Positions 2,474 to 64,000 of a stretch of DNA of 64,000 nt are shown piece by piece. The translations under genes were made by a program, and so were the position numbers. Under the pieces are notes generated by a model, which was not told the DNA's origin, did not search any database, and worked only from the letters and a program-made list of their open reading frames with translations. The stretch comes from Takakia lepidozioides. Its lineage: Eukaryota > Plantae > Bryophyta. The stretch lies in contig CM060733.1 in NCBI GenBank assembly GCA_030704615.1, positions 24,800,001-24,864,000 of the forward strand, written 5' to 3'. The stretch's first letter is position 1, and every line of letters begins with the position of its first letter.

Positions 2474-2772
2474 TGCAAGAGGAAGGAGGCTTGAGATTCC
2501 AAAAATATATGCAAGATCCGAAGAGGTTTTCTTTGGGTTAACTTATATGGCATTTTAGGAATGATAGATATGTAACATTTTTTTCAGCTGTGATTGGAGC
2601 TTTCCTACAGCGGAAGGCTCCCTAATAACACAACAACAAGAGAGAAGACATAGCACATAAAGGTCGTAGGGCACTAGTCTTATGTCCCAAAAAAATCCCT
2701 CCCTTATTCTGCATAGAAAAAAAACTACTAGATTTTGCTAGATCATTGGCTGAGATTCCCTAAAGGTACCTC

Positions 2773-22100: not shown

Positions 22101-22467
22101 GCAGGAAGCCTACCTTTGAACAGCAAACAGAAGCAGAGAGGAAAGGGAGAGTGCAATTGCCCGTTGTGTGGGCAATCTGAAGACAGTATTCATGTTTACC
22201 AACTTTGAAAGTCTCGAGGCTGAGCCAAAAGCCCAGGCCCTCCTGAGGCCTAGTTTTTGGGCAAATCACACACAGCAGATTGATGCTTGTGTGAAGGGAT
22301 TTCTAGAGGATATCTGGAAAACCCGGATTAATTCTATATATGAAGGTAAGTCTTACTACCAACGTCAGCCCCTGACAGAGGTAGGTTCTGTCCCTTTTGT
22401 TCCCGCTCAAACTGGGCGCGGGGTCAATGGCCACAAGGCTACGGCAAACAACGTCTTATGAGTACAA
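19173..22467 (+). mobile_element. LINE copy 1 (non-L1, possibly RTEX/L2-like), 5'-truncated and degenerate, inserted in (CT)n
   Basis: APE endonuclease (LLGDFNARVG, DYII, SDH), RT (GPDGI, NYRGITLL, FLDVKKAYD, QGCTLSPLLF, LMFADD, YLGV) and a partial C-terminal CPLC. Contains stops, frameshifts and internal deletions. Preceded by (CT)n 19148-19172; ends CTTATGAGTACAA followed by (TC)n. Confidence 0.93.
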
Positions 22468-22487
22468 TCTCTCTCTCTCCCTCTCGC

Positions 22488-25400: not shown

Positions 25401-25717
25401 ACACCCTCTTCAATTCCATCAAGGAAATTGTGCCTGTACCACTGTTTAACAACTTTGAAAATCTTGAGGCTGAGCCAAAAGCCCAGGCCCTTTTGGGGTC
25501 TAGCTATTGGGCAAATCACACACATCAGATTGATGCTTGTGTGAAGGGATTTCTGGAGAATATCTGGAAATCTCGGATCAACTGTTTATTCCAAGGTTAA
25601 TCATACTACCGGCGTCAGCCCCTGACAAAGGTAGTTTCTGTCCCTTTATGTTCCGTTCAAACTGGGCGCGGGGTCAATGGCCACAAGGCTACGGCAAACA
25701 ATGCCTTATGAGTACAA
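22488..25717 (+). mobile_element. LINE copy 2 of the same family, head-to-tail with copy 1
   Basis: Same domains, with an intact C-terminal Cys/His motif CPLCGQPEDNIHFLIHCP. Different 5' truncation point and different lesions from copy 1. Flanked by near-identical tctccctctcgctgtg (~22476-22491) and tctcctctcactgtg (25718-25732), a probable TSD. Confidence 0.93.
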
Positions 25718-26691
25718 TCTCCTCTCACTGTGATTTGCATTGCCCTGCACGCAGCCCAGAGTGATGGGCGGAAGCCTCCTGTGCCCCACACATCCCCAAG
25801 CATATCATTTCTGTGGTAAACGCAGAGCTATAAAACTAAAATCAATAACTTCGCAACCAGGCTGTTGAGTATGCATGCGGACAGGTGCCTCTGTGAGTAC
25901 CTTAATGGCAGTTGCGGGAAAATACGTTAATACCTGCAGCTGAGCTGCAGGATAAGCTAAGGCCTGGTGGGTGTAGAGTAGATTCTCTCTCTCTGTGTCC
26001 CCACTTCTTTGTTGTATCAACGGTAAGTCCCACTACTGTAGTGAGCCCCTCACAAAGGTGGTGTCTGTTCCCTCTTGTTTCCCCTAAACTGGGCATGAGG
26101 TCTATGGCCAGAAGGCAACGGCAAAACCATGAGTACATTCTGTCCCACTTCAGGTTTTGGGCTTCAAATTTTGTAGAATCTTTGCTGCAAGCTTTCAGCC
26201 CTTCTGGCCCAAGAAAACTAATCCCTCTATCTAGAGCCTCTGAATTACATGCTTAAATCATGGAAGGAAATGTTGTGAATAACGACTGTTAATCACTTCC
26301 TTCTCAAATACGTGTCCAATTGGCTCAATGTGTTGATTTGTTGATCTTGAAAATCTGTCAAACATCATTTCTAGCAGGAACTCCTGAGAAGTTTGTCTTC
26401 ATTACCTCATTCTTACAGATGATTTGGTATTGCCAGGTGTTGGTGAGGAGTCGCTTCAGTTAAAAGCCTTGTGTGCTGGTAATGGTGCCTACGTTCTGAG
26501 CCTCAAAGCACAAGTTGGAAAAGTAGAGTTGTAGTGAGCCTTCATAGGTGCAATGGTTGTCAATGGTTATACAGCTTGAACAAACAGATGTGGCCCATTT
26601 GTAAGTCTCAGGATTGCAACTGTACATTTATTACAGTCCCACATTTGACCTCTCTTCGCTTTTTCCTGGTCCAGAAACTAGATAGTTTGCA

Positions 26692-38975: not shown

Positions 38976-41900
38976 ATGTCTGGCGTGCACACAGTGTATG
39001 GAGCACGCGATGTTGTAGAGGAGAGTGCTCTGAGTAATGGGTGTGCGGAAGGTTTGAAAGGGATCAGGCTCGATGTCCGTGAAGATGAGAAGGAGGACGA
39101 AAGCAAGAAAAAACCCAAAAGGAGGGGGAGGAAGAGCGTGAAAGTATCCTGGCATGGTGGAGCGATGCGGGTGCGAAGGACGTGCAGACGTTGGGGGATC
39201 ATTCTCGCCATAGCTGCCTGCTTGCTATTCTTCCTGGAGGTGCGCATTCTGTCTCCAAGTCGCTTGAATTCACCAAGTAAACCTACCACCCTGGTCTCTT
39301 CCCCTTTTTCCGGTGCTCCTTGGAAGTGTTTATCACTATTCTCTTTGGTTTAAACGGGAGATTGACAGACAAAGTCGACTCTGCACACAGATTTCCACGA
39401 GGGTACTTCTTTCCATGCCTAGATTTTTTCATGCGTGGAATGGGTGTAGGATGTACCTGAAGTATGGTATGCAAGTCTCTCTCGCTCTCTCTTTCTCTCT
39501 CTCTCGTATGGAAAGTCGACTGCTTGAAGTGCTGGCAAGAAGAGAATTCTGACGCTGTTTGGTCCTGTGGGCGTCATGGATTGTTCAGAGGACAATGCTG
39601 GGGACAACCATGGTCTCGGCAAGGCGAAAACGGTGCACAGCAACCTCAACAACTTGGACATGCCCACACGTATGGTTGCGGGCGTACACCAACGTAAGTT
39701 AGGCTCGCATTGGATGTGAGCACTGCTCGTGGCCTTTAGGGAGGTGGCTTATTGCAATAGCGAGTGTTAGTCGGAAGTAGATCACACTGGTACTGACAGG
39801 TTGATCCCCGTGGGGACTTGATACATTGATGTATCTGCCATTGCAGAATTCTGTCTGTTCTGTTGCACAACATGTATTTCAGCTGATAGTACATTGGAAA
39901 TGCATCTTGCGCTCTGTAGTCCCATCACAGGATTCTTATCCGGCCATTAGCTGGGCTTCTTCTTAGTGTTTGCTTGCTTTTAAAATTGTGACCTCCATTT
40001 GGTGCATGGTGTTGCATAATCATAGTCTGGTGTCTGTATTCAGCTTGCCTACAGTTGCTGCAAGACCATGAGATACAGTCACTGCAACTACCACCCCCAA
40101 GTGCGTCACCCGTGAAGGAGCTGCACTATTGGTCCGATGAAAGCTCTACTTTTTCTGGAGAGCCAACTATGGCTCAGCGATCAGCCAGCTTCCAGGTCAG
40201 GAGTCACTTTACCACTACCCTCCACCCCACCCTTTTTACACCACAGCACAATGCTCCCTGCTGAACCAAAAAACCTTAAACCCAAAGCACATGGCCCAGG
40301 CACATGCGCTCCCTAACCTCCTGCATCCCTACAAATGTGGGAGGCAGGTGAAGGACATAGAGGGGGGCTTCGTGCACATACTCTGATCGTACTCAGCCTC
40401 CTAGCCTCTTTGGTTAGTAAAACACTGTTTACTTAATTATTTTGATTGCAGATGATGGTGGCTATGGTGCTGTCTAGGTCTGCACAACAACAGGCATTGA
40501 GAGCAAGAGGCAGGCCAGGGTACTTTGCAGGTCCCTATTTACAGGGATGCGCTGAGGGACATAGGACGTACTTAAAAACCTCCTTTCACATACCTCCTAA
40601 CCTCCTCCATTCTGAGGATATTAGGATGCGCATCTTTAGGAAGGAGGTTGGGAGGCGAAGATGCACATGTGCGCCGGTTAACACCTTCCCTTCCCACCTT
40701 GTTCCTCTTCCTCTTTCAACCGCAGAACAGCCCTCCATGCTGAGTGAGTTCCTTGAATCTAGAGCACCAGGTTTACACTGGCTGGCTTCCACTTACACTG
40801 TAAAGCAATATCCAAACATGTCTGTCCAAGCTTCCATACTGGTGTCTGTGTCACCTGGCCACGAATGGCATCTTTGTTGCTTGAATGCTTGAAACGATGT
40901 AGGGTTGCATAGAGAGTGCCTTGTCTGTTAGACAGTCATCAGTTATGTCGAAGTGGGCTGAGGCAGGGTTGGTGGTTGTAGATGGAGGAAAGCATGGAGG
41001 TGCACTGTGGGTGGTGCGGTGGCGGCAGTGGGTTTGACATTGACGCTGTCGACAAGGCTTTTATGGACACATGTAGTGTGGTCATAGTAACATGTGCATT
41101 TGGGGGTGGCGATGATTTGCACCAGCCCATTGGCTACACCAATGCCTCTGTGGCCAAGGTGATTAACGTGGACTGCTTTGCTTCACCTAACCCTAGTTTG
41201 CTATTGCTGTCACTCCTTTTTTCATTAAGCATGAAGATTTCCAGTATGACTCCTTAATCCTTCATCCTTGAGATCTTTCTATTCCAGTGCAACCACTACA
41301 TTCATTTGAGAGGCAACTTCTGGACAGTTTGGCAGATGCTGTTCGAGACACTTTGGGAACAGGAAACCATGTTTCATCTTTTAAGATTGATGATATTGAT
41401 GATGACACTGATGGATTCAAGTAAAAACCAATATGGTCCACAAGTTTGTTGTAAGTTTGTTTGCGTCTCCAGTCATCAGACAGAAACTTCATGCTTCAAG
41501 CTGTTATCACAGACAGTGGACAGAGAGAGGCTACCACTATGTTTTCCAAACTGAATTTTTTCACTTGTTGGTGTTGTTTTTATTGTTCCTGGTGATGCGG
41601 AGCCTTCTATCAAACCAGCTCTCTGTTCCATTGTGAAGACCACATACATTTTGGACATCTGGACAGATTTCTGGATACTGAGAGACAATTTTGAACAAGG
41701 AAACCCTTTTGGACCAGTTTTCAACAAAGCTAACGAAGATTCTCGCTGGTAAAGCAGGTCTGCTATGTTGCATTCTGGGATGAGGTGACACAGGAGACAC
41801 AGGTGAATGCGGGTAATGATCCAGGTCCTGATCGCAGCATAGGGCTGTGGCGTATTGTGCTGGTCCACAATCTGCCCTTCGCTGACCAGCGCCGCAATGG

Positions 41901-43075
41901 AAAAATTCCTAAGGTAAGCATGGTCCTCACCTTCTGTCCTCTGTTCACTTCTGTATCTCTGCGGCTGGGTGTCCTGGTTCTGCTGTTGGAGTCATTGGAA
42001 ATAGTTGCTGTGGAGCCTGAACAAAGCACGCTGCCTAAGAAGACGGTGTATAGTTCTGCATGTGAGTTGCCACAGTAATGGAACTGATGGAAGTACTTGG
42101 CTTGCCCTATTTCTTGAGGAATTGTCATTCTTTATTGTGAGTTAGATTAGTAGTACAGGTGCTTCACTGGTGTACAGCAGGAACAATTCAAGTCAAGCTC
42201 CTGGTAGAACTGATATGTAATGCCATGGCAGATGTTGAGCCACCGACTGTTTCCAAGTGCACAGTACAGCATTTGGGTGGACTCAAAGTCTCAGTTTCGG
42301 AGAGATCCGATTGGTGTTTTGGAGGCACTACTATGGAGACCTGGTGTGGTGTTTGCCATCTCTGAGCATGGTGCACGCAGCTGTGTTTACAAGGAAGGGG
42401 AGATGGTTGTGAAGAAGCATAAGGCCACACCAGAGGAAGTGGCTATTCAACTTGACCAGTATCGCTCTGAAGGCCTGCCCGAGAGTGCCCGCTTTGATGG
42501 TCACAAGGGTAAGTCAGCAGCGCACATCAAAATTTCTGTAGCTGATACTTTGAAAACTTCTCTTTCAGGACTTATATATGATAGATAGGTATACACATGT
42601 GATTGGCATGCAAATTCAGTAGAACAGTCCTTTCTGATGCCTGCCCCTTAAGTAAATTAACTTGAAAGAGTTGATTGGATAGTTGGACATGCATAATCTC
42701 CTTGAGAGAGACTTAAAATTGATATGGATCTTGTTCAGTGTATTGACATCCACTAAGACACTATCAATTGTTCTCCTTGTGTGTTTTGAGTATTGGAGTT
42801 TGGTTTTTCACTGATGGAGTGGGATCTAATGTGCTGCAGCGCTTGCGGAAGCATCAGTGATAGTGAGGGAGCATACAGGATTGACCAACCTCTTCATGTG
42901 TGTGTGGTTCAATGAGGTGATGCGCTTCACTGCACGTGACCAACTAAGCTTTCCCTTTGTGCTCACCCGCTTTCGTCTGTTGCATCCTCACATGTTTCCT
43001 GTGTGTACGCGCAAAGCACTTGTAAATAGTCTGGGTCATGTACGCAAAGCCCAACCTCTACTCCTGGACAGGTAA
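38976..43075 (+). CDS. DUF616 glycosyltransferase-like protein (MUCI70/TOD1 family), ~8 exons
   Basis: Type II TM anchor, then TCAFGGGDDLHQPIG, CYVAFWDE, IGLWRIVLVHNLPFADQRRNGKIPK, HRLFPSAQYSIWVDSK, AISEHGARS and NLFMCVWFNEVMRFTARDQLSF. GT-AG introns; a probable 34-nt micro-exon at 39368-39401 restores the frame. Confidence 0.9.
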
Positions 43076-45485: not shown

Positions 45486-48400
45486 TTAGTTGTCAGATGG
45501 CTGTGTGAAGGGCCTCACATCCAAGGACCCCACTGACATTGGGTTTTCCACTGCTTGAGCATCCATAGGTGGCCCTAAATTGTGTGAACTAAAAGGACCC
45601 CCTCTTGATGAGCTTGAAGTAGTTGCTGTGGTGACATGTAGTGAAAGGCTGTGATTTTTACATAATTCTTCCGACAAAGAGCGGTGGGCTTCAGCATCTG
45701 GGATTTCTCGACATAGGCTTAGTTTGCTCTTTGTATTCAGATCACCTGCTTCTGGTAGTGGGTCTCTGGAAGAGCACAAACGCATGACTGGTGTCTTCTC
45801 TAAAGGCAGTGGGAGCTCATCGTCTCTAGGTGAGTCTTTAGAAGTGCCACCTACAGCTAATAGCAATGATTTTTCCAGTGAGACATTGGTATTCGGCTGC
45901 AGCTTGTGGGAGTTTTCTTTATCCCGAGTCTGCTTGCCTGGCTTGCTCAAGTTCAGAGTTGGTGACAGGCTCTCCATATTTGTTGCTGACTCATTCTCAG
46001 TCTTGTTGTCAGGCAGGAGCTTCTTGCTAGAATCTGAAGTCCTGTTAATCCCGAGATGGGACCTGGTGTGCATTGCAAATTCAGCTCGAACTTCATTACA
46101 AGTGGCGTGGGATCTCAGCTCACTGCTTGAAGATAAGTCCACTGAAGCCCTGTTCATGATTAAGAAAAAATCACTTCATGAGATGCTTAACTTGACCAAG
46201 TAAATGTGCATCCTCTCAAGGGTTGCTTTGGAGTGTGTAGCAAAAGTTCTACAACAAGAGTGCATACTAATCTGGCTTTAGATAAAATCTATGGAAAGCA
46301 AGCTGATACTCACTTCCTCTTCCGCTTTCTTCTGGCTGACCCTGTTGCAGCTTTGAGAAAGCAGTGTTCACCAGATAACTGACCTTCCACAGGCTCAGGA
46401 TGGGGTTCACTGCCCCCTCCCTTCTTCTCACAATCTTTTTCACCATCTCCTGCCTTCTTTTCACCAGCATCTGCAGACTTTCACCACACAGTGTTGGTGG
46501 AATGCATGGGACAGACAATACAACGTACCTTCCCAGCCTCTTGTTCAACAATACTCACCCCAGGAAGATGCCAATAACATTCATACTTGAGAAAGTTGAG
46601 GAAGGTAGAATCACACTGACAGAACAATGTGCATGCATCTGGTTCAATAACCTTTGGAGATAACCAAATGTTTGAACAACTTCTCCCTGATTCTGGTGAG
46701 GCAGATTATCATATGGAGAGTAAAACAGGTTGCAGATATGCTGAAGCGATGGCTGTAAAATATAAAACAGAAAAGAGAGCGATGAGACCACTTTGCTTTC
46801 CAGTCCTAGGATTCCTCCTTCCTAGACTTTTCAAGTTTCGAAAGAGTGGTGGAAGTCACCTGTGAGGGCTGCTGGTAGCCATCTGTTACTTGGATCCTCA
46901 AGTTTATAATGGTTGTCCAAACTCTTTCTTTCTGGCAGACTTACCAACAGGCCATGTTCCTCATTCTGATTGCCCCCACTCACCCTCAACTGGCTGCTAC
47001 CAGCTCCAGCCATAACATCCTCCATTCGTGGTGCGACATAAGAGCTCTCTTGAGATTCACCTGTGCCGGTGTTACTCAGTTGCCCTTCACCTGCCTTGCA
47101 ACAACTCACACTAGATTTTGGAACAGTTGTATCCATGTGCCCACAAGGTTTATCTGCCATATCTCTGGAAATCAGAGTGCAAATACTACACTGAGCTTCA
47201 ATCACCTTCCCAGTAGTCAGCCGCCCTGTACTGCTTCTGGTAAGATCTGTGAGGCCCACACTTCTACATTTGGAGTTATCCAGTTCAACAAATTGATTGC
47301 CCGTTGCTTGATTATGTGATGCTCTTTCTTGCTCGGTTTCTAACTCCCTACCAAACAATCTTCCTTTCAATCCCACTGTCAAAAGATTTGGAGGCAACAC
47401 CCCTTGTCCATCATAAACAATGTCTCTCACTGAACACTGCCCAGGCAGCCTCTCCTCTGAAGCTGACGAAGAGTTGTTCAGGAGGAACATATGGTCCACT
47501 GAAGAAGGAGATCCAGTTGTAGAGGATGGTGTCCTTCCAGGCGACATTGATCCTCCTCTGTAAGCTTCCAACGGCACACCTACTTCCCTTCTTCCAATAT
47601 CCCCATGGGCAAACTCTGAATTTCCTGAATTTATGAGGCTCAGTGGATACCCTCTACCACATACGTAACCTGCAAACCCAGTATCTGTTTCACACATTGC
47701 AGACAACTGTTCCTTGTCTGTCAGATGATGTGCTTCAATATCTCCAGACTTGGCTTCTGTTAACTCGTCTAAGCCCGCACATGGAGGAATGTCTTTTCTC
47801 TCAAGTATTCTTGACCCAGTTTCATCAAAATGGGTTTCATCACCAGATGTGCTAGCTTTGGGATCGGATTGTGTTGTGTGCTCCTTGTTGGATAAATTTA
47901 TGCCAGTCACAAGCTTTTGACCTTCACAACCCCAACTGGTCCTTTTCTCTGCCTGGCTTGCTTCACCTTTCTTCAACTTTTCCACGAATTCGTCCATTGG
48001 GCTGTGGCAGAAGGAAGAAAGTATAATGGGTCATTTTGAATCTGCACTTGAGCCGCATTGAGTGCATTTACATCTTTATCTAGTAAAAAATTCTGATAAG
48101 TAGATATTGCCCCCAACATCAAAGTTGTGGTGAAAAAGACAGCAGCCTTACCTAAAGCAACGCATGCCAGATCCACTCAGAAGACTGCTGATGCGCCGCA
48201 CAAGCTCTTGCTCCATTGCTACCCTGACCCGCTTGCCAAGTTTTGGAAGCACTTTGAGACAACCTTAACGTAGAGTTTTGGTAAAAATTATGCATTACTA
48301 TGTAAATAAGCAAACCTTTGTACATCAATGGTGGGCAAGCCCTTGAACACTGAATCTGCAGCACTGTAGGCAACTGCTTCACCGGGTCCTGGAACAGGGG

Positions 48401-48560: not shown

Positions 48561-48818
48561 CCAGCTGCATCATGCAGATAAGGAGGATAGCATGATCTTA
48601 CAGGAAAAGTTTGTCAGCTGCTAGCCGGTACACACCTTCCATTTTGAGTTCCTGGAGAAGCAGACCACCAGTATTCCATTAATTCCTACGACCTTCTGCC
48701 AAATTTGAAACTAGTAGAGAAGAGTGAGAGTGAAGCAACTTGTGTGTTCTACATTAAGCACCTCCCTCCCTCCCTCTCTCTCTCGTTATAAAATACCTTC
48801 TCTCTCTCTCTCTCTCTC

Positions 48819-49059
48819 AAAAGCCCAGGCCCTCCTGAGGCCTAGTTTTTGGGCAAATCACACACAGAAGATTGATGCTTGTGTGAAGGGATTTCTAGAG
48901 GATATCTGGAAAACCCGGATTAATTCTTTATATGGAGGTAAGTCTTACTACCAACGTCAGCCCCTGACAGAGGTAGGTTCTGTCCCTTTTGTTCCCGCTC
49001 AAACTGGGCGCGGGGTCAATGGCCACAAGGCTACGGCAAACAACGTCTTATGAGTACAA
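48819..49059 (+). mobile_element. ~240-bp 3' end of the (TC)n-targeting LINE
   Basis: Near-identical to 22227-22467 (about 3 mismatches by eye). Flanked on both sides by (TC)n. Confidence 0.93.
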
Positions 49060-51837
49060 TCTCTCTCACAACTGAGACAAGGAAATAGGAAAAGTAAGAC
49101 CTCAGCAAGGGTACCATTGACATCAATAAAGTGAAGCAGCATCTTTCCTCTGGCCTGTAACACAAATGAAAACATGACATCAGCAGAAATTATTGAGACA
49201 TTACAACCTTGTACCAAGTAATGCATCTGTTCCTGCAAATGAGACTTGCAAGCTTGGCTAGCTTTGCTGCCAGCTTGAGATTATGAAGCCCATCTGATGT
49301 CGAAAGAAAATCCCCAAGGAAAATTTAATGGCACTTCCACAAAGAGCCACAAACACTCTCAAAATAAGATCAGACATTTTCCCCAAAAGCCTCTCACTGG
49401 TGCCCAATATAGTTAATCAGAAGAGTCTTGTTACTAACAATCAATCAAACCTCCTATTCAAGTGTGCACCTGCATGATTTGGAGCTCAGTTTCCATCTTC
49501 CTAATTAACACTCCCCGTGCTTGATTCATCCGAGACATCTCAAGGCCTGCACACATAACCATGATGATCATCAAGGTGTCCTTGTTGCAGGAGAGCTCAA
49601 AGACAGTTCGTGTGGAGCAGTGATGGCTTGCCATACTCCGAAGACCAATCATTGAGTAAACAAGTCATAACATCATCAAATCAAAGGGCAGGTGGAAGTG
49701 GAAGAAGCAAACAGGAAGGGGTACCGATTGAAGGAATAGCAGGGACAAGTGAAAGTTCTTGGGCAAGCCATAGTGCATCCCAGGCTTCTTGCAAGGCCTG
49801 CAGCATACACAATCTTTTGATTATCATGCCCTCATAAAAACCATTTATCTGGTTGCAGTGAAGGGCTAGATCGAGATGCAAGGTCAACTAGCGGCCTTCG
49901 AGAAGATGTCAAATAGAACAGTTCATTAACTCGAGCTGTCATCCAGTAGTGGCGTAGGAAGCATCATTTGTTGGTCTAGCTCCCTATGTATCCTTTGTCA
50001 ACAACCCATGTTCCCTCTCTCCCCTGCCCACTTGCACTTTCTCTGCGCATAAGCAATGTTTCTCTAAGAATCCACATGCTATTCCTGCACTTACTACAAT
50101 CCCCTGACCTTCTGTCATCTAAGCCCTATCTGAATACATTATCAATTGGTGCATCCGTCTGCTAAAGACTGAAACAGACTATGGCAATGACAAAAGTGCT
50201 CCTCTATAAAGATGCAAGACCTGCTAACTTGTCTATCGAAACAAGACATTCCCATAAGGCTGATGTCTAGCATAAGACAGTGAAATCGAAAGGAGGACCT
50301 GAGAAGTTGATGCTATAGTCTCATAACTATTCAAGAGAAAGTCAAATGTGCCTGCTGACGCTGCCAATTCCATCATAACTTCAGCCTCACGACGATTTCG
50401 GACACTGCAAGGTTCCAAAGAGTCAAATCATGGGCTAGAAGGGCCTAAAAGTCTTGATTCCTGTCCTCGTTAGGAGACTTGCGATTACTCACACATACAG
50501 GAGGAGAGAGAGCACAACACATTAAGGGAGGAGAGAGATAACTTGAAAACCCCTCTCTGAAGACCAGGGCCTGCAAGAGTTCTGATATCCAGGACTCTAA
50601 CAACCTTCAGATGGTCAGAGGAGCTTCACACTTGGAGAATGGCATGGAAGGAAAGAAAGTGAAATATGCAAACTTCTTGTTTATATGGCATGCATGCACA
50701 TGCAGTCAATAATACCCTCTGGCAGGTCGATTTTACAGAGGTGACGAGACAGATGGGGGGGCAAGAGGGATCAATAGAACTGTTCATAAAAGCATCCTAA
50801 GAGTAGATTGATCTTAATGACAGTACGTCATTTGAGTGTCACTAGACCTGTGTAAAGGTACAATTATGAGTGCATATTTTGATTAAAAATGTACCCTGGA
50901 AAATCCTGCACATACAAACAATCTTTAGTGGACAAATAGTAGAGCAGGATAGCAAACATCATGCTTCAGCCGTGGTCTCAAAACAGACTGAAAACTCCGC
51001 ATGCTCTCAGACAAATTCACCTCCGTGCAACAGAGAACTTGACAATATGCCCTTAACCTTGCCAACCACTATCCAGGGTACTTTTGGCAAAATTTTCGGA
51101 ATCGCAGATTGACTCCAACACTGAAAGTTTTAGGACCGTGAAACTCACAAAAACTCCTGCCGCAGAATTTCAGAGGAAAGTAAAGCCAACCATGATGCAA
51201 AAGAATAGCGTACCGTAAGACCAGTACATCCACAGGTACACTGAGCACTCTTGCTATTGAAGACTGCAGGTATGTCTCTTGATCCAAGTTGTATCCTTCT
51301 GATTGCTCCCGTAAGAGTACATCTCCAGCCGATTCCTGGAGGTGCACGTGCAATCACCCAGCGCATCTAGGGGTTTCAGGTAAGAGATATCTTATAAATG
51401 TAACATCTCTTTCTACGATAATATGTGGATTGCACAGCATCACAACGACAGTCATTCTTCCTCTGTGGCGTTGAAAGCGATTAACTTGCACTGCGGCAAA
51501 CCCTTACAATCAAACGCCGGGAACAAGAACAGACCATCAAACGTGATCGGAAGGCAGATCCGGGACGCAGACATGAATGTCGTGGAGGAAGGCAGATCCC
51601 TGAAAATTCCCCAAAACATCACGCACCACATTTGTACCACATTCCCGCCATACCTAGCTTGTCAACTACACCATCTTCAACGGAAACTAAAATGCAGGCG
51701 TTTAATCCGTCGGTACTTTCGCCGGATTCAGGCAGCGCCCCTGTCAAATCCTCCCCACCCCTTTTGGATAGGAGACAAGGCGAAGTGGCTCTTAGTCTCG
51801 TCAGAGTTTCTCTTTTAGATTCCTTTGTGCATTGACG

Positions 51838-54580: not shown

Positions 54581-55190
54581 TGTCACGGACATAGCCCAGA
54601 GGAACTTACCAGGAGTAAATATCAGAAGTTACCAAGTTACCATGTTACCAAAAGTTACCATGACTTACCCTGATTTACCATGATCTACCATGATTTACCA
54701 TTACTTACCAAGTTACCAGGAGTTTACCAAATTTTTAAGAGTAACTTAGGAAACTACTCAGAAAGCTTCATTTGAAGGAAACTTCTCCATCAAGATACCT
54801 CATTTGTTTAAGGAAGTTTCTCCATCAAGAAACCTTTGTTTAATCTTGGAAACTTCTCCAGCAAGCAACCTCCATAGGGGAAGCTTCTTAGGGAAGCTTC
54901 TTAGTAGCCAGTATATATAGGAGGCGAGACTGGACAGTCTTCAGTCTCGCCAACGCCAGTTCAAGCTACTCTTGTTTCCAGTTCCCAGTACTCCAGTCCA
55001 GTTCCCAGTACCCTAGCCTAGTTTCCAGTATCTGGTACTCTAGTCGAGTTTCCAGCATTCCAGTATTCAAGTCGTGTTCTAATATCTTGTACTCTTGTTC
55101 ATTGTTATAAAGATCGTCTTGATTCCTATTTACTCATCGTACATTCGGCCACGCCGACCTTTGTGTTCAGTCATGTTCTCGTCCTTGACA
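54581..55190 (+). mobile_element. 5' LTR (610 bp) of a Tcn1/sushi-type Ty3/Gypsy element
   Basis: TGTCACGGAC...GTCCTTGACA termini (9/10 inverted match). TATA at 54912-54919. Internal tandem arrays: ttacca ~10-mers at 54605-54730, ggaaacttctccatcaag at 54777-54870, ccagta/ccagtt at 54955-55070. Directly followed by gag. Confidence 0.88.
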
Positions 55191-55228
55191 GTTTGGCGAG
55201 ACTGCAGTTTGTTCTTTAGTTAGTTAAG

Positions 55229-56130
55229 ATGGAAGGCACATTTGCGGAAATGGTCACCACATTGCAGAGTCTTCAGCTCCAGATGCAAAAACTTCGTGTC
55301 TCTACTGCCCAACTACAAGCTAATCAGTCTCAAGACCTTGGCAATGCTCTCAACAATTTGCAACAACAAATTTCAGAGTTGAAGGAGTCGAACAATAGAT
55401 CTTCAACCTTACGAGTCCCTACTACAACAAATCATACTGCAACGGTTCATCCAAATCTTCAACAGATTATAAGGGAACCAAAGGTCAGCATGCCCGAGAA
55501 ATTTGATGGGACGAGATCAAGATTTCGCGGTTTTGTTCAGCAAGTACGATTGTTCCTACGACTACATCCACAACGCTACTCTGATAAAGATATTCAAGTG
55601 GGATTTGTGGGCACCTTTCTATCAGACACTGCCCTATCTTGGTTTGCACCGCTATTAGAGAAAAATTCGCATTTACTATACAATTTTGAAGCGTTCATGT
55701 CCGAGTTCACTGCAACGTTTGGAGAGAATGATAGAGAGAGAAATGTAGAGACAAATATGCGAAATCTTCGACAAGGAGCACGTCCAGCTTCCGTTTATGC
55801 TACCGAATTTCGACAACTTGCGTGCGACCTTGACTGGAATGAGAAGAGCCTCATTAGTCAGTTTCGATGTGGCCTAAAAGATGATGTTAAAGATTTGTTG
55901 TTGACAATGCCAAACGTGAGTACACTGAGCGAATTCATCACCCAAGTCATTGCATGCGATAATCGTTTGTTCGAAAGACGTCAAGAGAAGCGATCCGGAT
56001 GGTCGACGACGCACCATGTCGCTGCTACTACGGCACCAAATACAACGATCCATCAGACATCCGGTAATGATCATATGCATCTGATGCTGTCCGATTCAAG
56101 CCATTGACGCCACATGAAAAACAAAGACGG
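55229..56130 (+). CDS. gag: Retrotransposon Gag (PEG10/sushi/Tcn1-like), truncated
   Basis: PEKFDGTRSRFRGF, LSDTALSWF, LRQGARPASVYATEFRQLA and LDWNEKSLISQFRCGL. After a frameshift it continues DAVRFKPLTPHEKQRR and is cut off at ~56130, before the zinc knuckle. Confidence 0.9.
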
Positions 56131-56217
56131 CTGTCGTGCACCTAAGCATCATGCCACAACATACATCGCTGTCCACCACACAATCTAAGCACACAATCCT
56201 AGAAAGCTATACCACAA

Positions 56218-56725
56218 TGATAAGAGATGAGAAATGAGAGAAGTAGAAGACAATGAAAGCTCTCAAAGCATGAAGCAATCACATGAAGAACAAGCCCTAG
56301 TCCTTCCAAGTGAAATCCACTCTATCACATAAACTAAGTCAAGCCAAGGGCACCTTTGCTAAATGAATCCACCCTACAAAGCCCTCAACACACTCCCTCT
56401 CAATACCTAGAGCTATGGAGGTGAGAGAAGCTCATGGAGGCTCAACTACAAGAAGATGAGCCTCCTCAACACTCACAAGGGGAAAACCTATCTCCATGTC
56501 TCAAGTGAGGCTCGACACCTCACTTGGCATGTGAGACCAAATGAAGTCCCAACACACAAAATATAAATATAAATATCTAAAATGTCCTAGTTAACTAGAA
56601 GTAGGTAATTCTAGATAACCACGACTAAAACCATGACAGCTGTCATGCACCTAAGCATCGTGCCACAACATACATCGATGTCCACCACACAATCTAAGCA
56701 CACAATCCTAGAAAGCTATACCACA
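56218..56725 (-). repeat. 3' LTR (508 bp) of the DNMT-carrying element
   Basis: Minus strand TGTGGTAT...CTTATCA, immediately preceded by a purine-rich tract (TTGGGGGGCGAT; plus strand 56726-56737). Confidence 0.8.
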
Positions 56726-56982
56726 ATCGCCCCCCAAGCTGGTGGTTAGGTCCCTCTAACTCCAGATAGCTACAAGATGTAATAGCCACAGCCGTACTAA
56801 GTCCTCTATCACTGTCCCTATTGTACTCAAACTCTATAGACCAAGAGGCCGGGTACAAGAGCAACCCCATCGTTAGTTGCCGTCTTGCAATCTGTGAACT
56901 TGAGTCAGGATCTCGTGTGTTGGTCTCCTAGTAGCTTGGCCTTGCATTTCTTGTTAGCATTCCATGGTTGTATCCACTCCCA

Positions 56983-57130
56983 CTATCCAATGCAATACGG
57001 ACATAACCAATCCCCATCAGGAACCATCTCAAGAGGTGGAGTCAAGCATCCCATATGCCAACCTCTAGAGCATCGATCACACACCAGCATGGTGGCTGCC
57101 CCTCTAGCAGACCCACTCAACATGCATTTC
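56983..57130 (-). CDS. PHD finger at the integrase C-terminus
   Basis: CMLS...MLVCDRCSRGWHMGCLTPPLEMVPDGDWLCPYC fits C4HC3 with the second Cys replaced by Ser. In frame with the integrase across one TGA at 57220. Confidence 0.9.
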
Positions 57131-57219
57131 AAACTTGCAGATACCACTGCCAGGTTTGGGTCAATCCTGCCATTGACATTCGGAAGGTGACATGGCACAC
57201 AATTATGCACATGGTCCTT

Positions 57220-58294
57220 TCAAATTATGCCATCCCAACCCTCCAAGACCAAGACGCCTGAGGGCAAAACCTCTCGAACCCTCAAAATAACACGTCCTGC
57301 AGTCACATCCAATGTCGTAGGAGCAGTCTGCTGCAGATAGACATAGTCACCAGGGTTGAATCTCCGAACCCCAGGACGATAGCCCCCACCACGTATGGTA
57401 GCATACCTCAACGTATCACGATGTTGTGCAATGGCAAGGTTCTCGAAAGCCATGGGCATGACTTTCTTGAACAACTCTGCACGCTGCTCACATGCACGTG
57501 CCCACACGTCCGGATCGTCAAGGTTAAGAACTGTAGTAGCTTCTCTGCGAATGGATGTAGGCAAATCCGGCTCTCGGCCAAAGAGAAGAAAGTATGGTGA
57601 GAAGGAGGCAAGTGATGCTTGCTTGCTGAATCTATAGCCCATGGCTAACCAGGGTAACTGAAAGTCCCAATCTCCTAGGTGTCCCTTCTGCAAGCCATAC
57701 TTGCGCAAACCCCTCTTTACTGTCTGAACAACTCTCTCTGTCAAGCCATCGGCCTCAGGATGATCCCGAAGAAGTGGTGCGGTGGTCTATCAAGGCCTTG
57801 TCATACAAAGCCTGAAACTCCCCCAAGAACTCTCTCCCTTGGTCCGTGAGTACCTCAGCTGGAGCACCGAATCGGCTAAGCACACAATCCAAGAATACAT
57901 ACGCAGCTCCCTCACTAGCCTTATCAGGCAATGGAACCAACTCAATCCACTTGGAGAAGTGCTCCACCATCACCAACACGTACTTGTTGTGGCGCATGGT
58001 CAGTGGCAACGGCCCTGCGAAGTCAAGACTCCACCTGTAGCCCAATCCCATGATCGGAAGAGGGTGCAATTGTGGAGTAGGGGCGTTGAATGAAGCACGC
58101 ACCCTGTCACACACCATGCACCTAGCCACAAATTGTTGCACCTCTGTGTGCATACCACGCCACCAATACTGCCCCTGCAGTAGACTATGAGTGCGTCGCA
58201 TCCCAAAATGCCCCAACTCCTCATGGGCATGCCGTACTAACCGTGCCCGCTGTGTCGGGTGAGGCACAATCCTCACTCGACCATCCTCCCACAC
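57220..58294 (-). CDS. Integrase (HHCC + DDE core + C-terminal module), frameshifted
   Basis: HEELGHFG..CMVC, WSLDF, VLTDQG, (frameshift) DHPEADGLTER, SPYFLLFGREP and RFNPGDYVYL. Confidence 0.95.
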
Positions 58295-58548
58295 TCGGAG
58301 CAGGTGTGTCCCCTCTACTTGAACCTCTTGGCTCGTTGTAGGATCCGATCCCTCTCATTGGCAGTCATAGTGGCTGCAGTGTCTCCAGTGCGGAGGTAGT
58401 CCAACACAACTGAATCCTCATGTATATCTTTGGCGCCACCTTGCTCATTGCTGGCCTCAGGGTCCTCAGACACTTGATCTACAGTCATCCCTGTTGCAGG
58501 TCCAACCTGGCCTTCCGCTGCCAAGATACACAGAAATGCAGATGCATG

Positions 58549-59952
58549 TCATCCGGGCACCATCTCCTCGTCCGTCTCACCATGCCACCAAGCTCCAGTG
58601 TCATCCTGCTGGCTCGTGCATGGATTGCATCTCAACCCATCTGCATTGCGATTGACCAAACCCGGTCGATGCACCACCTGAAAGTCATACTCTTGAAGGA
58701 TGAGTACCCACCGTGCAAGCTTCCCCATAAGCTTATCTGACTCCATCAACCACTTGAGTGGTTGGTGATCCGTGACAAGGGTGAAGAGATTGTCGTATAG
58801 ATAGCACCTGAAGTGTGCCACGGCCCACACTGCAGCTAAGCATTCTCCCTCATATGAGCTATACTTAGACTCTGCAACGTTGTTTGATCGGCTAGCATAA
58901 GTCACTACGAACTCTCTTCCCTCATCATCCACCTGTGTGAGCACCGCTCCAAACCCCAGCATGCTCCAATCTGTATGCAGCTGAAAAGGACGCCCCCTGA
59001 TAGGTCGTCTCAAGATGTGCGCCGAGGTCAACCTCGCCTTGAGCTCTTGAAAAGCTTGTTCTTGCTCATCTTCCCACTGCCACTCCTGGTCCATCTTGGT
59101 CAGCTTGGTTAGAGCCTTTGCAATGGCACTAAATCCCTTAACAAACTGTCTATAATAGTTTGCTAACCCCATGAAAGCTCGAACTCGGCTCACATCCGTG
59201 GGGCGTGGAACCTGTGCAATGGACTCTACCTTGGTCTGCTGTACCCCCAATCCTCCAGGATATATCATGTGACCCAGATACTCAATCTGGTTGTGGAAAA
59301 ACTTGCACTTTCCCGGATGTAACTTCAATCCGTGCGCCCTCAAGCACTCAAATACCCCCTGAAGGTGTCTCTCATGCTCTTCCACCGCAGCACTAAAGAT
59401 GATGATGTCATCTATGTAGCACCAAGCAAACTCCACCCCTGCTAGAATCCTGTCCATGACTCTCTGAAACTCTATCGGAGCGTTATTAAGCCCAAATGGT
59501 AAGAACCGCCACTGGTATAGGCAATCCTTCCCGTGCTCATTGATCCCCCAGAATGCCGTCTTTTGCTTATCCGCCTCCTTGATCGGCAACTGGTGATATC
59601 CGGATCGTAAATCCAACGTGCTAAAGACCTTGGCATGCCCAATGGCATCAAAGATCTCCTCTGGTGTTGGCATGGCATACCTATCGGTCTGACGATTTAC
59701 AGGCTGGTAATCACCGCACATACGTCTCTCCGTCCAATTGCCAAAGACATCATTCTTGGCTGGCATCACTGTGGCTGAAGCATACTCTCCCCCAGATAGC
59801 TCCACCAAACCAGCCTCCCAAAGGTCCTGAGTTCTCATCTGAATCAAGGACCTCTCCATGTCACTGTATTTATAGGGTCTCCAAAAGATTGGCGTGTCAG
59901 TAGCCAATTCAATGCGAATCTCTTGACCTTTCAGTGCTCCTAAGTCCTTCAA
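58549..59952 (-). CDS. Reverse transcriptase + RNase H
   Basis: RMCGDY, FSTLDLRSGYHQ, LPFGLNNAP, YIDD, YLGH; RNase H LHTDWS, EGECLA, VTDHQPL, NADGL. Confidence 0.97.
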   Translation of the reverse strand: MKDLGALKGQEIRIELATDTPIFWRPYKYSDMERSLIQMRTQDLWEAGLVELSGGEYASATVMPAKNDVFGNWTERRMCGDYQPVNRQTDRYAMPTPEEIFDAIGHAKVFSTLDLRSGYHQLPIKEADKQKTAFWGINEHGKDCLYQWRFLPFGLNNAPIEFQRVMDRILAGVEFAWCYIDDIIIFSAAVEEHERHLQGVFECLRAHGLKLHPGKCKFFHNQIEYLGHMIYPGGLGVQQTKVESIAQVPRPTDVSRVRAFMGLANYYRQFVKGFSAIAKALTKLTKMDQEWQWEDEQEQAFQELKARLTSAHILRRPIRGRPFQLHTDWSMLGFGAVLTQVDDEGREFVVTYASRSNNVAESKYSSYEGECLAAVWAVAHFRCYLYDNLFTLVTDHQPLKWLMESDKLMGKLARWVLILQEYDFQVVHRPGLVNRNADGLRCNPCTSQQDDTGAWWHGETDEEMVPG

Positions 59953-60419
59953 ACTGAAGGCAAAGCAATTCCTGTAAGCCCTTAGGAACCACCGTATACG
60001 TCGTCTCTCTCCTCCGGTGACAATGGGTCCAATGTCAGGCTCCCAATTGTCCTCCGTAACTGCAACCTTAAGTCCAATGGGCTTAGAGGTAGAGGACGCG
60101 TCCCGTGGTTGCTATGCCGCAACCTCTTGAGCAGTACTCCCTGCCTGCTCAGTCAATGACAAGGCCTCATCCTGCCCCATCATCTCATCCTTGAGGACCT
60201 CATCAACCCGAGAAGAATCCCCAACCTCATCCATCACAGCTGCCTTGGCTGCCAACTCCTTCTGAACCTCGAGCACCTCCCATGTGTGCCATGGATGCGG
60301 CCTGCACCTCGTGGTCCTCACCTGCTCGCCCCCACTCGCTGCATGTACTGTCTCGGTAGGCAGGGAGACCATGAAGGGAAGTGTACTCCGTACTTTGCGC
60401 TGCTCGGCCATAGCCAAGC

Positions 60420-61365
60420 TGATAATCCAGGTCAAGCAATTGAGATCCATTGCTTGTCCCAACACCTGACGACGTGATGCCTCAGAAAGAGATAGCACCG
60501 CCGTGGTACCAGTAGTAAAACCCATCGCCCGCTCACGCTCGTCAGCATTGGGCTCCACTAATTGTTGCAACTGGCTATCCCACAAGAGGCCAGGTCCACC
60601 ATCCCGAAAAGCATGGGATCCTGGGAAGCTGAGCAGTGTAGATAATGCTGCTCATGGTTGACCCACCCTGTTGACCACTGCCAAAGGCGAACGGTCATCG
60701 TGTCTCACACGTTGAGACTGCCTCCCTGTGTCCAAAATGCTATCCACTGTGAGGTGTGCTGGCCGCTGCACCCCATCAAATGCACGCTTGAGCAGTGCGG
60801 GTGGCATCAAGTTAGTCCACCATAGCCGTGGACGATGAGCCCATGACCCCACTGCAGCTGCATCCAACAACACTGCTGACCCAAGCCACGACCGGACTTG
60901 ATACCCACTGGCCATCAACCTGGCCCGAGAATCACCCATCAGTGGCACATTCTCCAAGATGTATGCTGGAGATACAGCTTGGTGAAGTTGCAAGTGGCGC
61001 AAAATCCACACCATCTCCCAAAACAGACCCGTCCTCGAGTCTCGCAATCCATTGTCATGCCCGGCTGATGAATGCCCTTGGCAGGGCCAACCTGCCACTA
61101 CCAGATCAATGGAGCCAACCCGCTCCAAATCCTGCGCCCCCAACAACGAAATGTCTGCTGGCAAGGCTTGTTGGTATCCACGAACTGCAGACACTGGCAA
61201 CAAATCAGGGTACTGCTGTACCAACTAAGCAACATGGCGCAGTGAGACGCGTCGTGCAGTCTCATCTCTCTCCACATACAGGTAACGTCGAACTCGTACA
61301 CCTGCCTGCAGTACTGCAGCCAATCCAGTGCTGATCCCGCCAAACAAGTCCAGAAGACATATGCC
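60420..61365 (-). CDS. C5 cytosine DNA methyltransferase domain (DNMT3-like) embedded in pol; two in-frame stops
   Basis: Motif I LDLFGGISTG, II YVERD, III ADI, IV DLVVAGWPCQ (catalytic Cys), V RTGLFWEM, VI ILENV, VII/VIII LDAAAVGSWAHRPRLWWTNL, IX ERERAMGF and X RRQVLGQAM. ORFs 61225..61869, 60652..61224, 60112..60585 and the RT ORF all share one reading frame. Confidence 0.92.
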
Positions 61366-61779
61366 TTCATCCGGGCACTGCCACACAAGAGGTGTGGTGT
61401 CCAATGGCGACAACTGAGGTGGTCCTGGTGCAATCACCGCACTCTCCTCTTCTCCTGATGGTACGAAGGCCTCTACCCAGGCTTGTTGTACCCGTCCATC
61501 AGCAGTCTGCTGCAAATCCTTGCTCGTACCCCATAATGGAGTGTGAGCAACCATGGCAGGCAACTCCGCCGTACCATGCATGTCATCCTGCTCTGCTGGA
61601 GGTGGCACATCCTCTGCATGGGCATTGCCTTCCAGCAACTCTCTAGGCCAACTAATTGCAGCTGTAAAGGCGGCTAGTGTTGGCATCTTGCCCCGCTGGG
61701 CAGCCACAATACCCCCAATGAATGTCACAGGGAGCTGTGCACGACGACCATCCCCTGACTGCCATCCAGGCCTGTAGGA

Positions 61780-62030
61780 TGCTGACTCCTCCCAAAAGTA
61801 CAGGGTGAAGCCCATGGGATATAAAACTGCCCCACCAACAAGGACATCGTAAGAGACCGCATCTGTCACACCGTGTCATGCCCCGAGCCTGCTCTGATCC
61901 TCCCAGAGATGTCTATATCTGGAAAGGACAAGGCTCCATATCCGCCTCCATGAGGCCCAAACTTGCAATAGCAGCTCTGCCCAACATCAGTGGCTGAGCT
62001 CATGAGTCCAACAAGACCCGCAGTGGCCAG
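61780..62030 (-). CDS. Aspartic protease remnant
   Basis: RVLLDS*AQPLMLG (D-S-G with the Gly codon now TGA at 62000-62002), then after a frameshift/deletion YDVLVGGAVL. Confidence 0.75.
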
Positions 62031-62164
62031 TACTTCTTGCATGCCGGTCCACTCAAACAGAAAATGCCTCCCTGGTTGTCTAACAAGACAACTCCAGGTG
62101 TCACCATGGCGCGCTCAAAGGCTGGCCTAGCTGGCAGCTCCGTCAACCTGGCAGCTGCAGCTTG

Positions 62165-63250
62165 TCATGGCGCAGCCGTGGCAGTCTTGACCCTCAAATC
62201 CGAGGATCCCTCAGCCACTACACCTTTCAGTAACTCCGCAGAAGATGAAGTGACCTCCCCACTCTCAAAGAGTGTTGCTGCTAGTCTGAACACTGCAACT
62301 GGTCTTACCCCCGGCGTCGAAATCATGGTTGCCGAGAACAGTGGGGCTTGACACACAGAGGTGGCTGCCCCCAATAACACACCGGCTGCACTAGCCTTGG
62401 TAGTGGGTGTCAGTGCTGCATGTGTAGTTCTCCCCAATGGCATAGTAACCTCCGCCTCGGTAACAGCCGGGCGAGAACTAGGTGCCATGGATGGCGTCGA
62501 CACTGTCTCTGCCAATGTGAATGACTGAGGAAGCCTCGCTTGACGGCTTGCCTCCCCACGCTGTGGATCCAATTCCACCTCTGCACCTCGTGGCTCAGGA
62601 ACTCGTGCTGCTCCTCGAGTCACGGCTGCAGCAGACTCCACCTGCACTAGTGGTAGTGCTGCTCCGCACATGAATCCCATGCCTCCCATATCTCCTCCCT
62701 CAGGAACACGAGGTGGACCATCCCGCCTGGGAGCCGGTACCACCTGAGCTGTAGCCATGGCAGCGAGCCTCTGCTCTAGCTGCTGAAGCCGGTTGGCCAT
62801 GTCTTGGTCAACACCCTGACCTCCGCGTCCTTGGCCATGTTGAGCTTGCCCTTGGCCTGCACCTCGTGCCCGACCACCTCGTCCTCTCTGGGCTGGTCCA
62901 CCTCGCCCCCGGCCACCATTGTTCCCTTGGAACTGGCCTGGGCGCAACTCAGGGTGCAAGTCATAACACTGGGCATCTCCATGCCCATACTTGCCACAAT
63001 GCCCACACTGCAACTGTGCAGGCTGTGCTTGTACCGGCCTTCTGCCACTCTCTGGGCAATCTCTCTTGACATGGGCTCCTCCACATGTCCAACATATCAC
63101 CCCTGGTTGCTGATGGCCTGCAAAAGGTGCCACGGGCCTCTGCACCTGAGGTCCCCTGTAAGCTCCATGGAACTTGGGTTGGGCAACCTTGCCCCCCTGA
63201 CCACGCTGTTGGGCAGTCCCTTGTACTACATCTCCTCCATCGTGTCCCAC
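62165..63250 (-). CDS. Gag nucleocapsid region with two zinc knuckles and an RGG-rich tract
   Basis: CWTCGGAHVKRDC and CGHCGKYGHGDAQC, followed by GGRGRGG repeats. Same frame as the protease across a TGA at 62165. Confidence 0.85.
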   Translation of the reverse strand: MGHDGGDVVQGTAQQRGQGGKVAQPKFHGAYRGPQVQRPVAPFAGHQQPGVICWTCGGAHVKRDCPESGRRPVQAQPAQLQCGHCGKYGHGDAQCYDLHPELRPGQFQGNNGGRGRGGPAQRGRGGRARGAGQGQAQHGQGRGGQGVDQDMANRLQQLEQRLAAMATAQVVPAPRRDGPPRVPEGGDMGGMGFMCGAALPLVQVESAAAVTRGAARVPEPRGAEVELDPQRGEASRQARLPQSFTLAETVSTPSMAPSSRPAVTEAEVTMPLGRTTHAALTPTTKASAAGVLLGAATSVCQAPLFSATMISTPGVRPVAVFRLAATLFESGEVTSSSAELLKGVVAEGSSDLRVKTATAAP

Positions 63251-64000
63251 AACAATGGCACGGAAATGACTTGCACCCTCGGCGAGAATCCTCCTGACTC
63301 CGAGTCTGAACCTTCCTCAGAAGACACTGAAGGTGAAAGTGGCCTAAACCGCACACCTTGTCTTGTGTACCCACTAGTATCGCTGGTGCTTGTACCGGCA
63401 CTCCCCTCAGCAGCTGGTGGCACCTCCGTGATGAAAACTCACAACCCAACCGGTTGTCAACCTGTCTCTAATCCCCACTTTCTACAAGGTAACCGGGTAA
63501 AGAACCTGTTGCGGCTACTGGTTCAAGCAGGAATAATAGGTTTCTAACGTAGACCTGTACCTGCACCTGCATCCACCGCAAGCACTCTTATGGTCTGCTG
63601 GTCATCAACCCAGCCTCACCATAGAAGAAACACTGGTGGTCTTGCTGGTCATCACTCTAGCCTCACCACCGACAGCATACTCTAGGATTGGCCGGTGATC
63701 AAATCCGGACCAACCTCCTATGAAAACAAGCGCCCACACAAAGCTAACATGGCGCATAGTCAAGCATGCAGGTGTGGAGGGGATCCAAACACAAGAAAAT
63801 CAAGACAGCAACTCCCCCACACCAAAAACACTCCACAGTGTCGCTCCTGCAAGGACACCCCAGCCCAAACCCGGACTGACTCTTGCCTCCACCTACGGAA
63901 AGGTTTTGGCCTACAGAGAGGGTGAAAGACTATGGAGAAGAGAAACTAAAGCAATTCCTAACCCCAGAATGCTCTCATCCCACCACTCTCCCTCCTGTCT

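Follow-up and report, generated by a model that had tools for sequence, protein, structure and literature searches.

The window analyzed here, a 64,000-nucleotide stretch of the Takakia lepidozioides genome, carries a minus-strand Ty3/Gypsy element whose genes run, from right to left, in the order gag, broken protease, C5 methyltransferase (DNMT), reverse transcriptase (RT), RNase H, integrase, and PHD finger. The features of this element and of the sequence that it interrupts are as follows:

61700-63316 (approximate), minus strand: gag with two zinc knuckles, followed by a broken protease, read from the translation
60408-61368, minus strand: DNMT3-like C5 methyltransferase (PF00145, E 2e-12) with motifs I, IV (PC), VI (ENV), and VIII
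60114-60106, minus strand: conserved in-frame stop TAG-CAA-CCA at the ORF1/ORF2 boundary, in a CAR-YYA readthrough-type context
58552-60111, minus strand: RT and RNase H, from Pfam
57373-58354, minus strand: integrase H2C2 finger, core, and long helix, from Pfam, with frame changes near 58315 and 57769
57178-57372, minus strand: SH3-like integrase C-terminal domain, ending in H-x3-C-x2-C-H-L-P
57222-57220, minus strand: premature TGA upstream of the PHD, at a codon for Trp in nearly all distinct relatives (58 of 61)
57126-56992, minus strand: PHD finger, from PF00628 and its zinc ligands, broken in the window's copy
Zinc ligands of the PHD, minus strand: C 57126, S 57117, C 57081, C 57072, H 57057, C 57048, C 57003, C 56994
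56985-56983, minus strand: natural stop of the Pol frame, 2 residues past the last Cys
56641-56727, minus strand: repeat B1, ending in ...GACA, then a GC spacer and TGTC
56132-56638, minus strand: 3' terminal repeat A2-B2, TG...CA, with B2 at 56218-56132
54581-56131, plus strand: second Ty3 element (LTR and gag), interrupted by the insertion, with a likely 4-bp target site at 56128-56131

The gag frame gave no match in the Pfam scan. By a rule taken from full-length relatives, the element ends at 56132, within the gag of the plus-strand Ty3 element. Three such relatives (L018, L021, and L067, which amount to two loci once near-identical ones are removed) share the layout A1...B1-GC-A2-B2, and the A1 partner and 5' end of the window's element are expected beyond the window's right edge. 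Their ends are TG...CA, apart from the 5' end of L018, which is TA. A 4-bp target duplication flanks each of the full-length loci (3 of 3), which indicates integrase-type insertion. A DIRS-type (recombinase) element is ruled out by the TG...CA ends, the 4-bp duplications, and the rve integrase. The bases flanking 14 element ends contain no common motif. Observed-to-expected ratios within the element are 0.48 for CpG and 1.69 for TpG, as expected for a methylated, decaying copy.

A preliminary description of this DNA had placed the element next to another LTR element and away from the genes. The second element is there, but the insertion lies inside its gag rather than merely adjoining it. The Pfam-confirmed host gene closest to the element ends about 13 kb off, two long exon-like frames are found at a distance of about 8 kb, and the window has several genes.

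The junction between B1 and A2 forms a palindrome, GACA-GC-TGTC (56635-56644), that recurs in L012, L016, L021, L033, L034, L041, and L067. It resembles two element ends joined with a 2-base spacer, and may mirror split-repeat reverse transcription. Elsewhere in the window, intron-rich host genes encode an alpha-mannosidase (GH38; 9760-15433, plus strand) and a TOD1/MUCI70 glycosyltransferase-like protein (40982-43072, plus strand). Two long Ser-rich exon-like frames of 229 and 399 amino acids at 45486-48030 (minus strand) have no Pfam match, and the longer of them, the ORF at 46834-48030, has no homologue among longer proteins, which is weak evidence. Two tandem LINE-like copies that are about 87% identical, with endonuclease and RT read by eye, occupy 19000-25730 (plus strand); their 250-bp tail is found again at 48818-49067 (99%) and, in the opposite orientation, at 29601-29808. 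A further fragment at 683-2542 (minus strand), likewise read by eye, is a decayed remnant of a LINE-type endonuclease and RT.

The presence of a PHD finger on the integrase is borne out by the Pfam scan of the window, in which PF00628 matches with 40.8 bits against a gathering cut-off of 24 (E 2.3e-10). The finger is contained in a 78-residue frame at 57219-56986 (minus strand), and seven of its eight zinc ligands are present. The exception is ligand 2, which is Ser rather than Cys (codon 57117-57115, in the sequence CMLS). Thus, the C4HC3 pattern assigned in the preliminary description holds for the family, whose ligand columns are 95-100% conserved, but not for this copy. The CxxC motif is restored by relatives, given that Cys occupies the Ser column in 60 of 61 loci. 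Furthermore, nearly all sequencing depth in four runs holding the host's own family differs from the window at the first base of the Ser codon, and therefore the loss of ligand 2 is private to the window's copy. Because of the TGA at 57222-57220 and the further breaks in the integrase, which comprise an additional stop at 58551-58549 and the two frame changes listed above, this copy is unable to make the finger. The PHD domain is real, and the copy that carries it here is dead. The finger does end the Pol frame, whose stop falls 4 residues past the last Cys in 43 of 48 distinct loci. However, Pol is the second of two frames and the methyltransferase lies outside it, so the finger cannot be said to end one polyprotein that contains both.

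Relatives were collected from several sources. With the finger as the query, 35 proteins were found, those with names coming from Marchantia, Calypogeia, and Sphagnum. From a metagenome scan, we used the best 80 of 166 loci, among which 61 are distinct at <98% identity. A profile search yielded 484 representatives at E values up to 1e-30, the best 150 of which were analyzed. All of these best 150 end in a PHD, partly as a consequence of how the query was constructed, and 132 of the 150 have the full C4HC3 pattern, the 18 misses being mostly truncations or spacing variants. Among the 61 distinct loci, the ligand columns read C in 59/61, 60/61, 57/58, and 58/58, H in 57/59, and C in 57/59, 52/55, and 43/43, and the His ligand is invariant across 98 aligned proteins. 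In every distinct locus that spans the integrase end and the PHD (55 of 55), the two share a single frame, and 20 of these loci are without a stop in columns 143-265. The finger is thus a conserved, in-frame feature of the family.

Ratios of pN/pS relative to the window are 0.39 for the PHD, 0.24-0.26 for the integrase end, 0.31 for DNMT, 0.25 for RT, and 0.21 for RNase H; because the window is one side of every comparison, these values are not independent, and they are near saturation and include post-insertion decay. All are well below 1, and the PHD value is the highest among the domains compared. The family is also highly repeated, as judged from the 22,780 contigs of one run that align on 2.6 kb of the element (not a copy count). 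It ranges over bryophytes and green algae, reaching chlorophytes, with copies in Marchantia. A scan of viral contigs found no relative, and no Klebsormidium-named proteins were among the matches returned by the protein searches.

To place the finger within the integrase, we rely on a structure model of an intact relative (P0001) made with a 98-sequence alignment, which has a pLDDT of 86.6 (33 close sequences gave a pLDDT of 50). In the model, a long helix leads into an SH3-like barrel, which the PHD follows. Among the many SH3 and Tudor folds that match the barrel is the C-terminal domain of foamy-virus integrase (4bac_A; Z 6.4, rmsd 3.0 over 63 residues). Given that the PHD comes after the integrase core and this SH3-like C-terminal domain, it takes the position where chromoviruses carry a chromodomain, as had been proposed. 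No Pfam chromodomain family matched the window's region or any of 37 related proteins. Ahead of the finger, the motif H-x3-C-x2-C-H-L-P (57213-57181, minus strand), whose Cys-His pair is shared by 130 of the 150 representatives, is a candidate for an additional zinc site.

The best fold match of the PHD is that of ATXR5 bound to H3 (5vab; Z 9.8, rmsd 1.7, 53 residues), and the next are DPF2 and ORC1b (5hh7), with unmodified H3. The top structural matches are all H3 binders, with 37-42% identity and rmsd values of 1.6-1.8 over about 50 residues. Sequence matches of the finger in the PDB comprise CHD4, PHF12, the first PHD (PHD1) of KDM5A/B, BHC80, BAZ2A/B, UHRF1, and AIRE; neither a DNMT3 nor an ATRX ADD domain is among the best 60 of 138. 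In readers of H3K4me3 of the BPTF/ING2/TAF3 type, the cage Trp sits two residues ahead of the His ligand. At this position, Trp occurs in 0 of 132 complete fingers, and Gly is found in 117 of the 132 and in 56 of 58 loci.

Residues of PHDs that read H3K4me3 are named in a published study (PMC4225485), according to which KDM5B PHD1 needs four residues, including L325, D328, W351, and an acid contacting K4. In our own mapping of these residues onto the family finger, the equivalent of L325 is Leu at C3-2 in 59 of 59 loci, that of D328 is Asp at C3+1 (55 of 58 loci; 126 of 132 complete fingers), and that of W351 is Trp at C7-2 (54 of 55 loci; 125 of 132 complete fingers). By this alignment, the A1 and R2 pocket residues of unmodified-H3 readers are present in the family finger. 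Considering these matches to ATXR5, DPF2, and ORC1b and the lack of a cage Trp, the sequence and fold class of the finger are those of readers of unmodified H3. Intact family fingers are likely to bind histone H3.

The acid that contacts K4 is found in only 3 of 33 near relatives (the land-plant branch), and D or E is present at C1-3 in 78 of 132 distant relatives. Because this acid is mostly absent from the land-plant branch, K4 selectivity there may be weak, but TIP5 is described as reading K4 mostly via backbone carbonyls. For readers of this class such as KDM5B and TIP5, K4me3 is reported to lower affinity 6- to over 15-fold.

A second structural feature of the family concerns the boundary between its two frames. 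ORF1 (Gag-PR-DNMT) and ORF2 (RT-RH-IN-PHD) lie on either side of TAG-CAA-CC, and TAG or TAA followed by CAACC occupies this place in 19 of the 23 distinct loci whose junction can be read. GAG-CAACC is present in 1 of the 23, and the junction is shifted or rearranged in 3. No variant letter reaches 5% at any position in 60106-60114 in four runs of the host's own family (1353 contigs in one). The other stops of the element lack such conservation, and we therefore reject the explanation that the TAG at 60114-60112 arose by decay. Counted from protein sequences alone, 24 of 55 DNMT-bearing proteins stop right past the DNMT, without RT.

The CAA-CCA of the window fits CAR-YYA, the readthrough signal described for tobacco mosaic virus (PMC2194720). 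Most metagenome copies have CAA-CCC-ATG, with exact CAR-YYA in 1 of the 19 conserved loci, and therefore reinitiation is possible in these relatives; the host family has no ATG at the CAA-CC position. The Tca2 element provides a precedent in which an in-frame stop need not be leaky through its local context. From these sequences, the conserved stop points to readthrough.

The methyltransferase itself appears to be a genuine DNMT3 relative, in that the first 25 of 27 PDB matches of the Marchantia protein P0039 are DNMT3A/B/C (best E 1.7e-8). Its catalytic motifs are kept across the family (catalytic Cys in 20 of 22, ENV Asn in 23 of 23), and the window's copy has two premature stops (61227-61225 and 60654-60652). 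Co-occurrence with the PHD, which the preliminary description had proposed to examine across related elements, is found in 22 of the 27 distinct loci that are long enough to judge, in which no less than 4.4 kb of sequence precedes the PHD. Truncation or rearrangement affects the remaining 5. Among the 150 representatives, DNMT is directly ahead of the integrase in 63 and before RT in one frame in 2, 10 pass from RT or RNase H to the integrase without an in-frame DNMT, and 75 do not extend far enough to judge. In the relatives P0261, P0181, and P0186, a single ORF contains DNMT, RT, and RNase H. One full-length protein, P0241, has the order Gag-PR-RT-RH-IN-PHD and no DNMT. Proteins with the order RH-DNMT-IN-PHD, including a Scenedesmus 'pol', form one branch, an algal sister clade (37 of 45 rows, SH-aLRT 100), in a quick tree made without bootstrap or reference chromovirus RT, midpoint-rooted, from 45 rows in which RT and RNase H are complete. 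The PHD is therefore the constant part of these elements, and the DNMT moves or is missing. In P0155, P0224, and P0226, degenerate, low-scoring DNMT-like domains are located between RNase H and integrase, and those of P0155 and P0226 have no recognisable catalytic motifs.

It had been suggested that reader and writer might be coupled in the manner of the DNMT3 ADD domain, with the PHD sensing unmethylated H3K4 and positioning or switching on the element's own DNMT3, such that the new copy and its flanks would be methylated where K4 is bare. The wide co-occurrence of the two domains and the retained catalytic motifs favor this arrangement. So do the 63 of 150 representatives above, in which DNMT, integrase, and PHD share one frame, and the branch including the Scenedesmus protein, where a single DNMT-IN-PHD protein could exist. 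However, an ADD-type unit has its reader adjacent to the catalytic domain in one polypeptide, and its finger is all-Cys with a GATA-like first finger. The finger of the window's family is instead C4HC3 with an invariant His, ADD domains are absent from its best PDB matches, and in the window's branch it is separated from the DNMT by a conserved stop, RT, RNase H, and integrase. That the PHD is constant while the DNMT is mobile or absent also argues against an obligatory unit. P0241 has the finger without the enzyme, as does Gypsy-7a_cRei, going by its published domain list. We consequently regard ADD-like coupling as improbable, and conclude that the PHD and DNMT probably do not work as one unit in the window's branch.

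Perhaps the finger has less to do with chromatin state than with attachment, and acts as a general tether that holds the nucleosome or H3 tail and raises integration efficiency or stabilizes the integrase end, with little selectivity. The land-plant branch, which mostly lacks the acid that contacts K4 but retains the residues of the A1 and R2 pocket, fits this possibility, as do the absence of a shared motif beside the 14 element ends and the location of the window's copy among genes. Nevertheless, readers of the KDM5B/TIP5 class are sensitive to K4me3 to the extent noted above, and most distant relatives keep the acid before C1, and we judge a nonselective tether to be unlikely. A ligand other than a histone is a very improbable alternative, wherein the PHD would bind another host or element protein or RNA, for example in particle assembly or nuclear import. 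Ligands that mimic H3 are described for PHD fingers in the abstract of one report (PMC8166343), and the conserved Cys-His motif ahead of the finger may form another surface, but this proposal is at odds with the top structural matches, all of which bind H3.

The explanation that we favor, with somewhat more confidence than doubt, is that a broken PHD finger ends the integrase of a dead Ty3/Gypsy copy of the Gypsy-DNMT3 type, and that the finger of active copies likely grips the N-terminus of H3 unless K4 is trimethylated, biasing insertion away from active promoters. An intact PHD would hold the free H3 N-terminus when K4 is not trimethylated, and insertion would be biased accordingly. Ribosomes would pass the conserved TAG at a low rate. 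Production and packaging of the DNMT would consequently match those of Gag, and the integrase-PHD protein would be scarce and released by the protease. The DNMT would then act on cDNA or on the new copy, and the PHD within the integration complex. These would be two separate chromatin tools within one element, with no ADD-like switch. The finger probably works like the chromodomain of chromoviruses, but by a different rule. The heterochromatin targeting that had been proposed rested on a single nested insertion, in a window with several host genes, and finds no support, given that a preference cannot be read from one site. If the finger reads unmethylated K4, avoidance of active promoters is a more natural expectation than a preference for heterochromatin.

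On a broader scale, we speculate that an old, green-lineage-wide Ty3 clade may have rebuilt the instruction "methylate where H3K4 is bare" from two parts. An integrase-PHD would land on chromatin without H3K4me3, and a DNMT3 made at Gag levels, through a leaky stop of the tobacco mosaic virus type, would methylate the cDNA such that copies arrive pre-silenced, with an algal sister clade having both parts on one DNMT-integrase-PHD protein. We consider this extended scheme doubtful as a whole.

Reader-plus-writer combinations are not unique to this family. In EpiLTRs (bioRxiv 10.64898/2026.05.21.726589), a chromatin reader and a cytosine methyltransferase are already reported in one LTR element. 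These elements differ in having a chromodomain, DAM, and a DNMT4-related enzyme, and their authors separate them from Gypsy-DNMT3. The window does not have this set of features: the Pfam scan found no adenine methylase, there is no chromodomain match, and the DNMT is DNMT3-like. By its features, the element is a probable relative of KnitGypsy-Dnmt3, the streptophyte Gypsy-DNMT3 described in 2018 from Klebsormidium only (PMC5890265). Its DNMT gave no methylation in yeast, which the authors call inconclusive. The two share Gypsy domains, a DNMT3-like domain with catalytic motifs that is under purifying selection, and DIRS-like split direct repeats (A1...B1-A2-B2, with B1 and B2 in the window), in the layout that the paper's legend gives. 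As far as the published description extends, they differ in that the DNMT of KnitGypsy-Dnmt3 is in the ORF of RT, whereas that of the window ends ORF1 at the conserved stop, and in that the window's family is found in land plants, reaches chlorophytes, and has a second domain order. The term "PHD" occurs 0 times in the main and supplement text available for that paper, although its Fig. 4c may show one.

Chromoviruses such as MAGGY likewise have, past the C-terminal domain of the integrase, a histone-reader module that is proposed to influence where they insert (PMC6317226; bioRxiv 2021.11.30.470311); their chromodomain reads H3K9me, whereas the PHD of the window's family has no methyl-lysine cage. 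Compared with PHDs that bind unmodified H3 (ATXR5 5vab, ORC1b 5hh7, KDM5A/B PHD1, BAZ2A/B, BHC80, and DPF2/3), the finger has the same fold, no cage Trp, and the A1/R2 residues, but the acid before C1 is mostly missing in the window's land-plant branch. The family has a conserved integrase PHD in a Gypsy-DNMT3-type element, and by its domains is neither a chromovirus nor an ADD unit.

Further elements to compare are Gypsy-7a_cRei of Chlamydomonas and, presumably, REM1. Gypsy-7a_cRei has a Gypsy polyprotein with a PHD and LTRs made of subparts (bioRxiv 2022.06.16.496473). Compared by description only, it differs in that no DNMT is listed and the legend puts the PHD before the integrase. Its intergenic insertion is reported there at 2.6x chance, which the authors attribute to targeting or selection, and serves here as a family-level precedent for biased insertion by a PHD-bearing element. 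A 2019 paper notes that PHDs are encoded by many retrotransposons, and PHD-transposon fusions were surveyed in 2022. Within the literature searched, which left aside most subscription papers, Repbase, theses, figures, and bioRxiv supplements, we found no description of a land-plant Gypsy-DNMT3 with a PHD or conserved stop, nor of a clade with a PHD in both land plants and chlorophytes; Supplementary Table 6 of bioRxiv 2021.11.30.470311 may bear on the PHD.

The PHD makes a second targeting rule testable, namely avoiding H3K4me3 as opposed to seeking H3K9me. To our knowledge, no histone reader of plant LTR integrases other than the chromodomain has been well tested, and Marchantia, in which copies of the family are found, is a genetic model with chromatin maps. 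The conserved stop in turn predicts DNMT at structural-protein levels, which would change the picture of retrotransposon DNMTs and would make the cDNA within the particle a likelier substrate than DNA at the target site. Elements with DNMT in ORF1, with DNMT between RNase H and integrase, and with no DNMT provide a natural series on the purpose of this enzyme.

Several members of the family depart from the common architecture. Many distant, partly algal members (P0109, P0153, P0163, and others) continue for 100-500 residues (median 246) past the PHD without a Pfam match. Extra modules are seen in P0174, which has a G-patch ahead of the integrase, and in P0186, which has CCCH fingers in its N-terminal part. 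Finally, four internally deleted loci (L009, L010, L011, and L068) keep gag, in most cases also DNMT, and the PHD end, with RT and RNase H missing. These are possibly non-autonomous forms.
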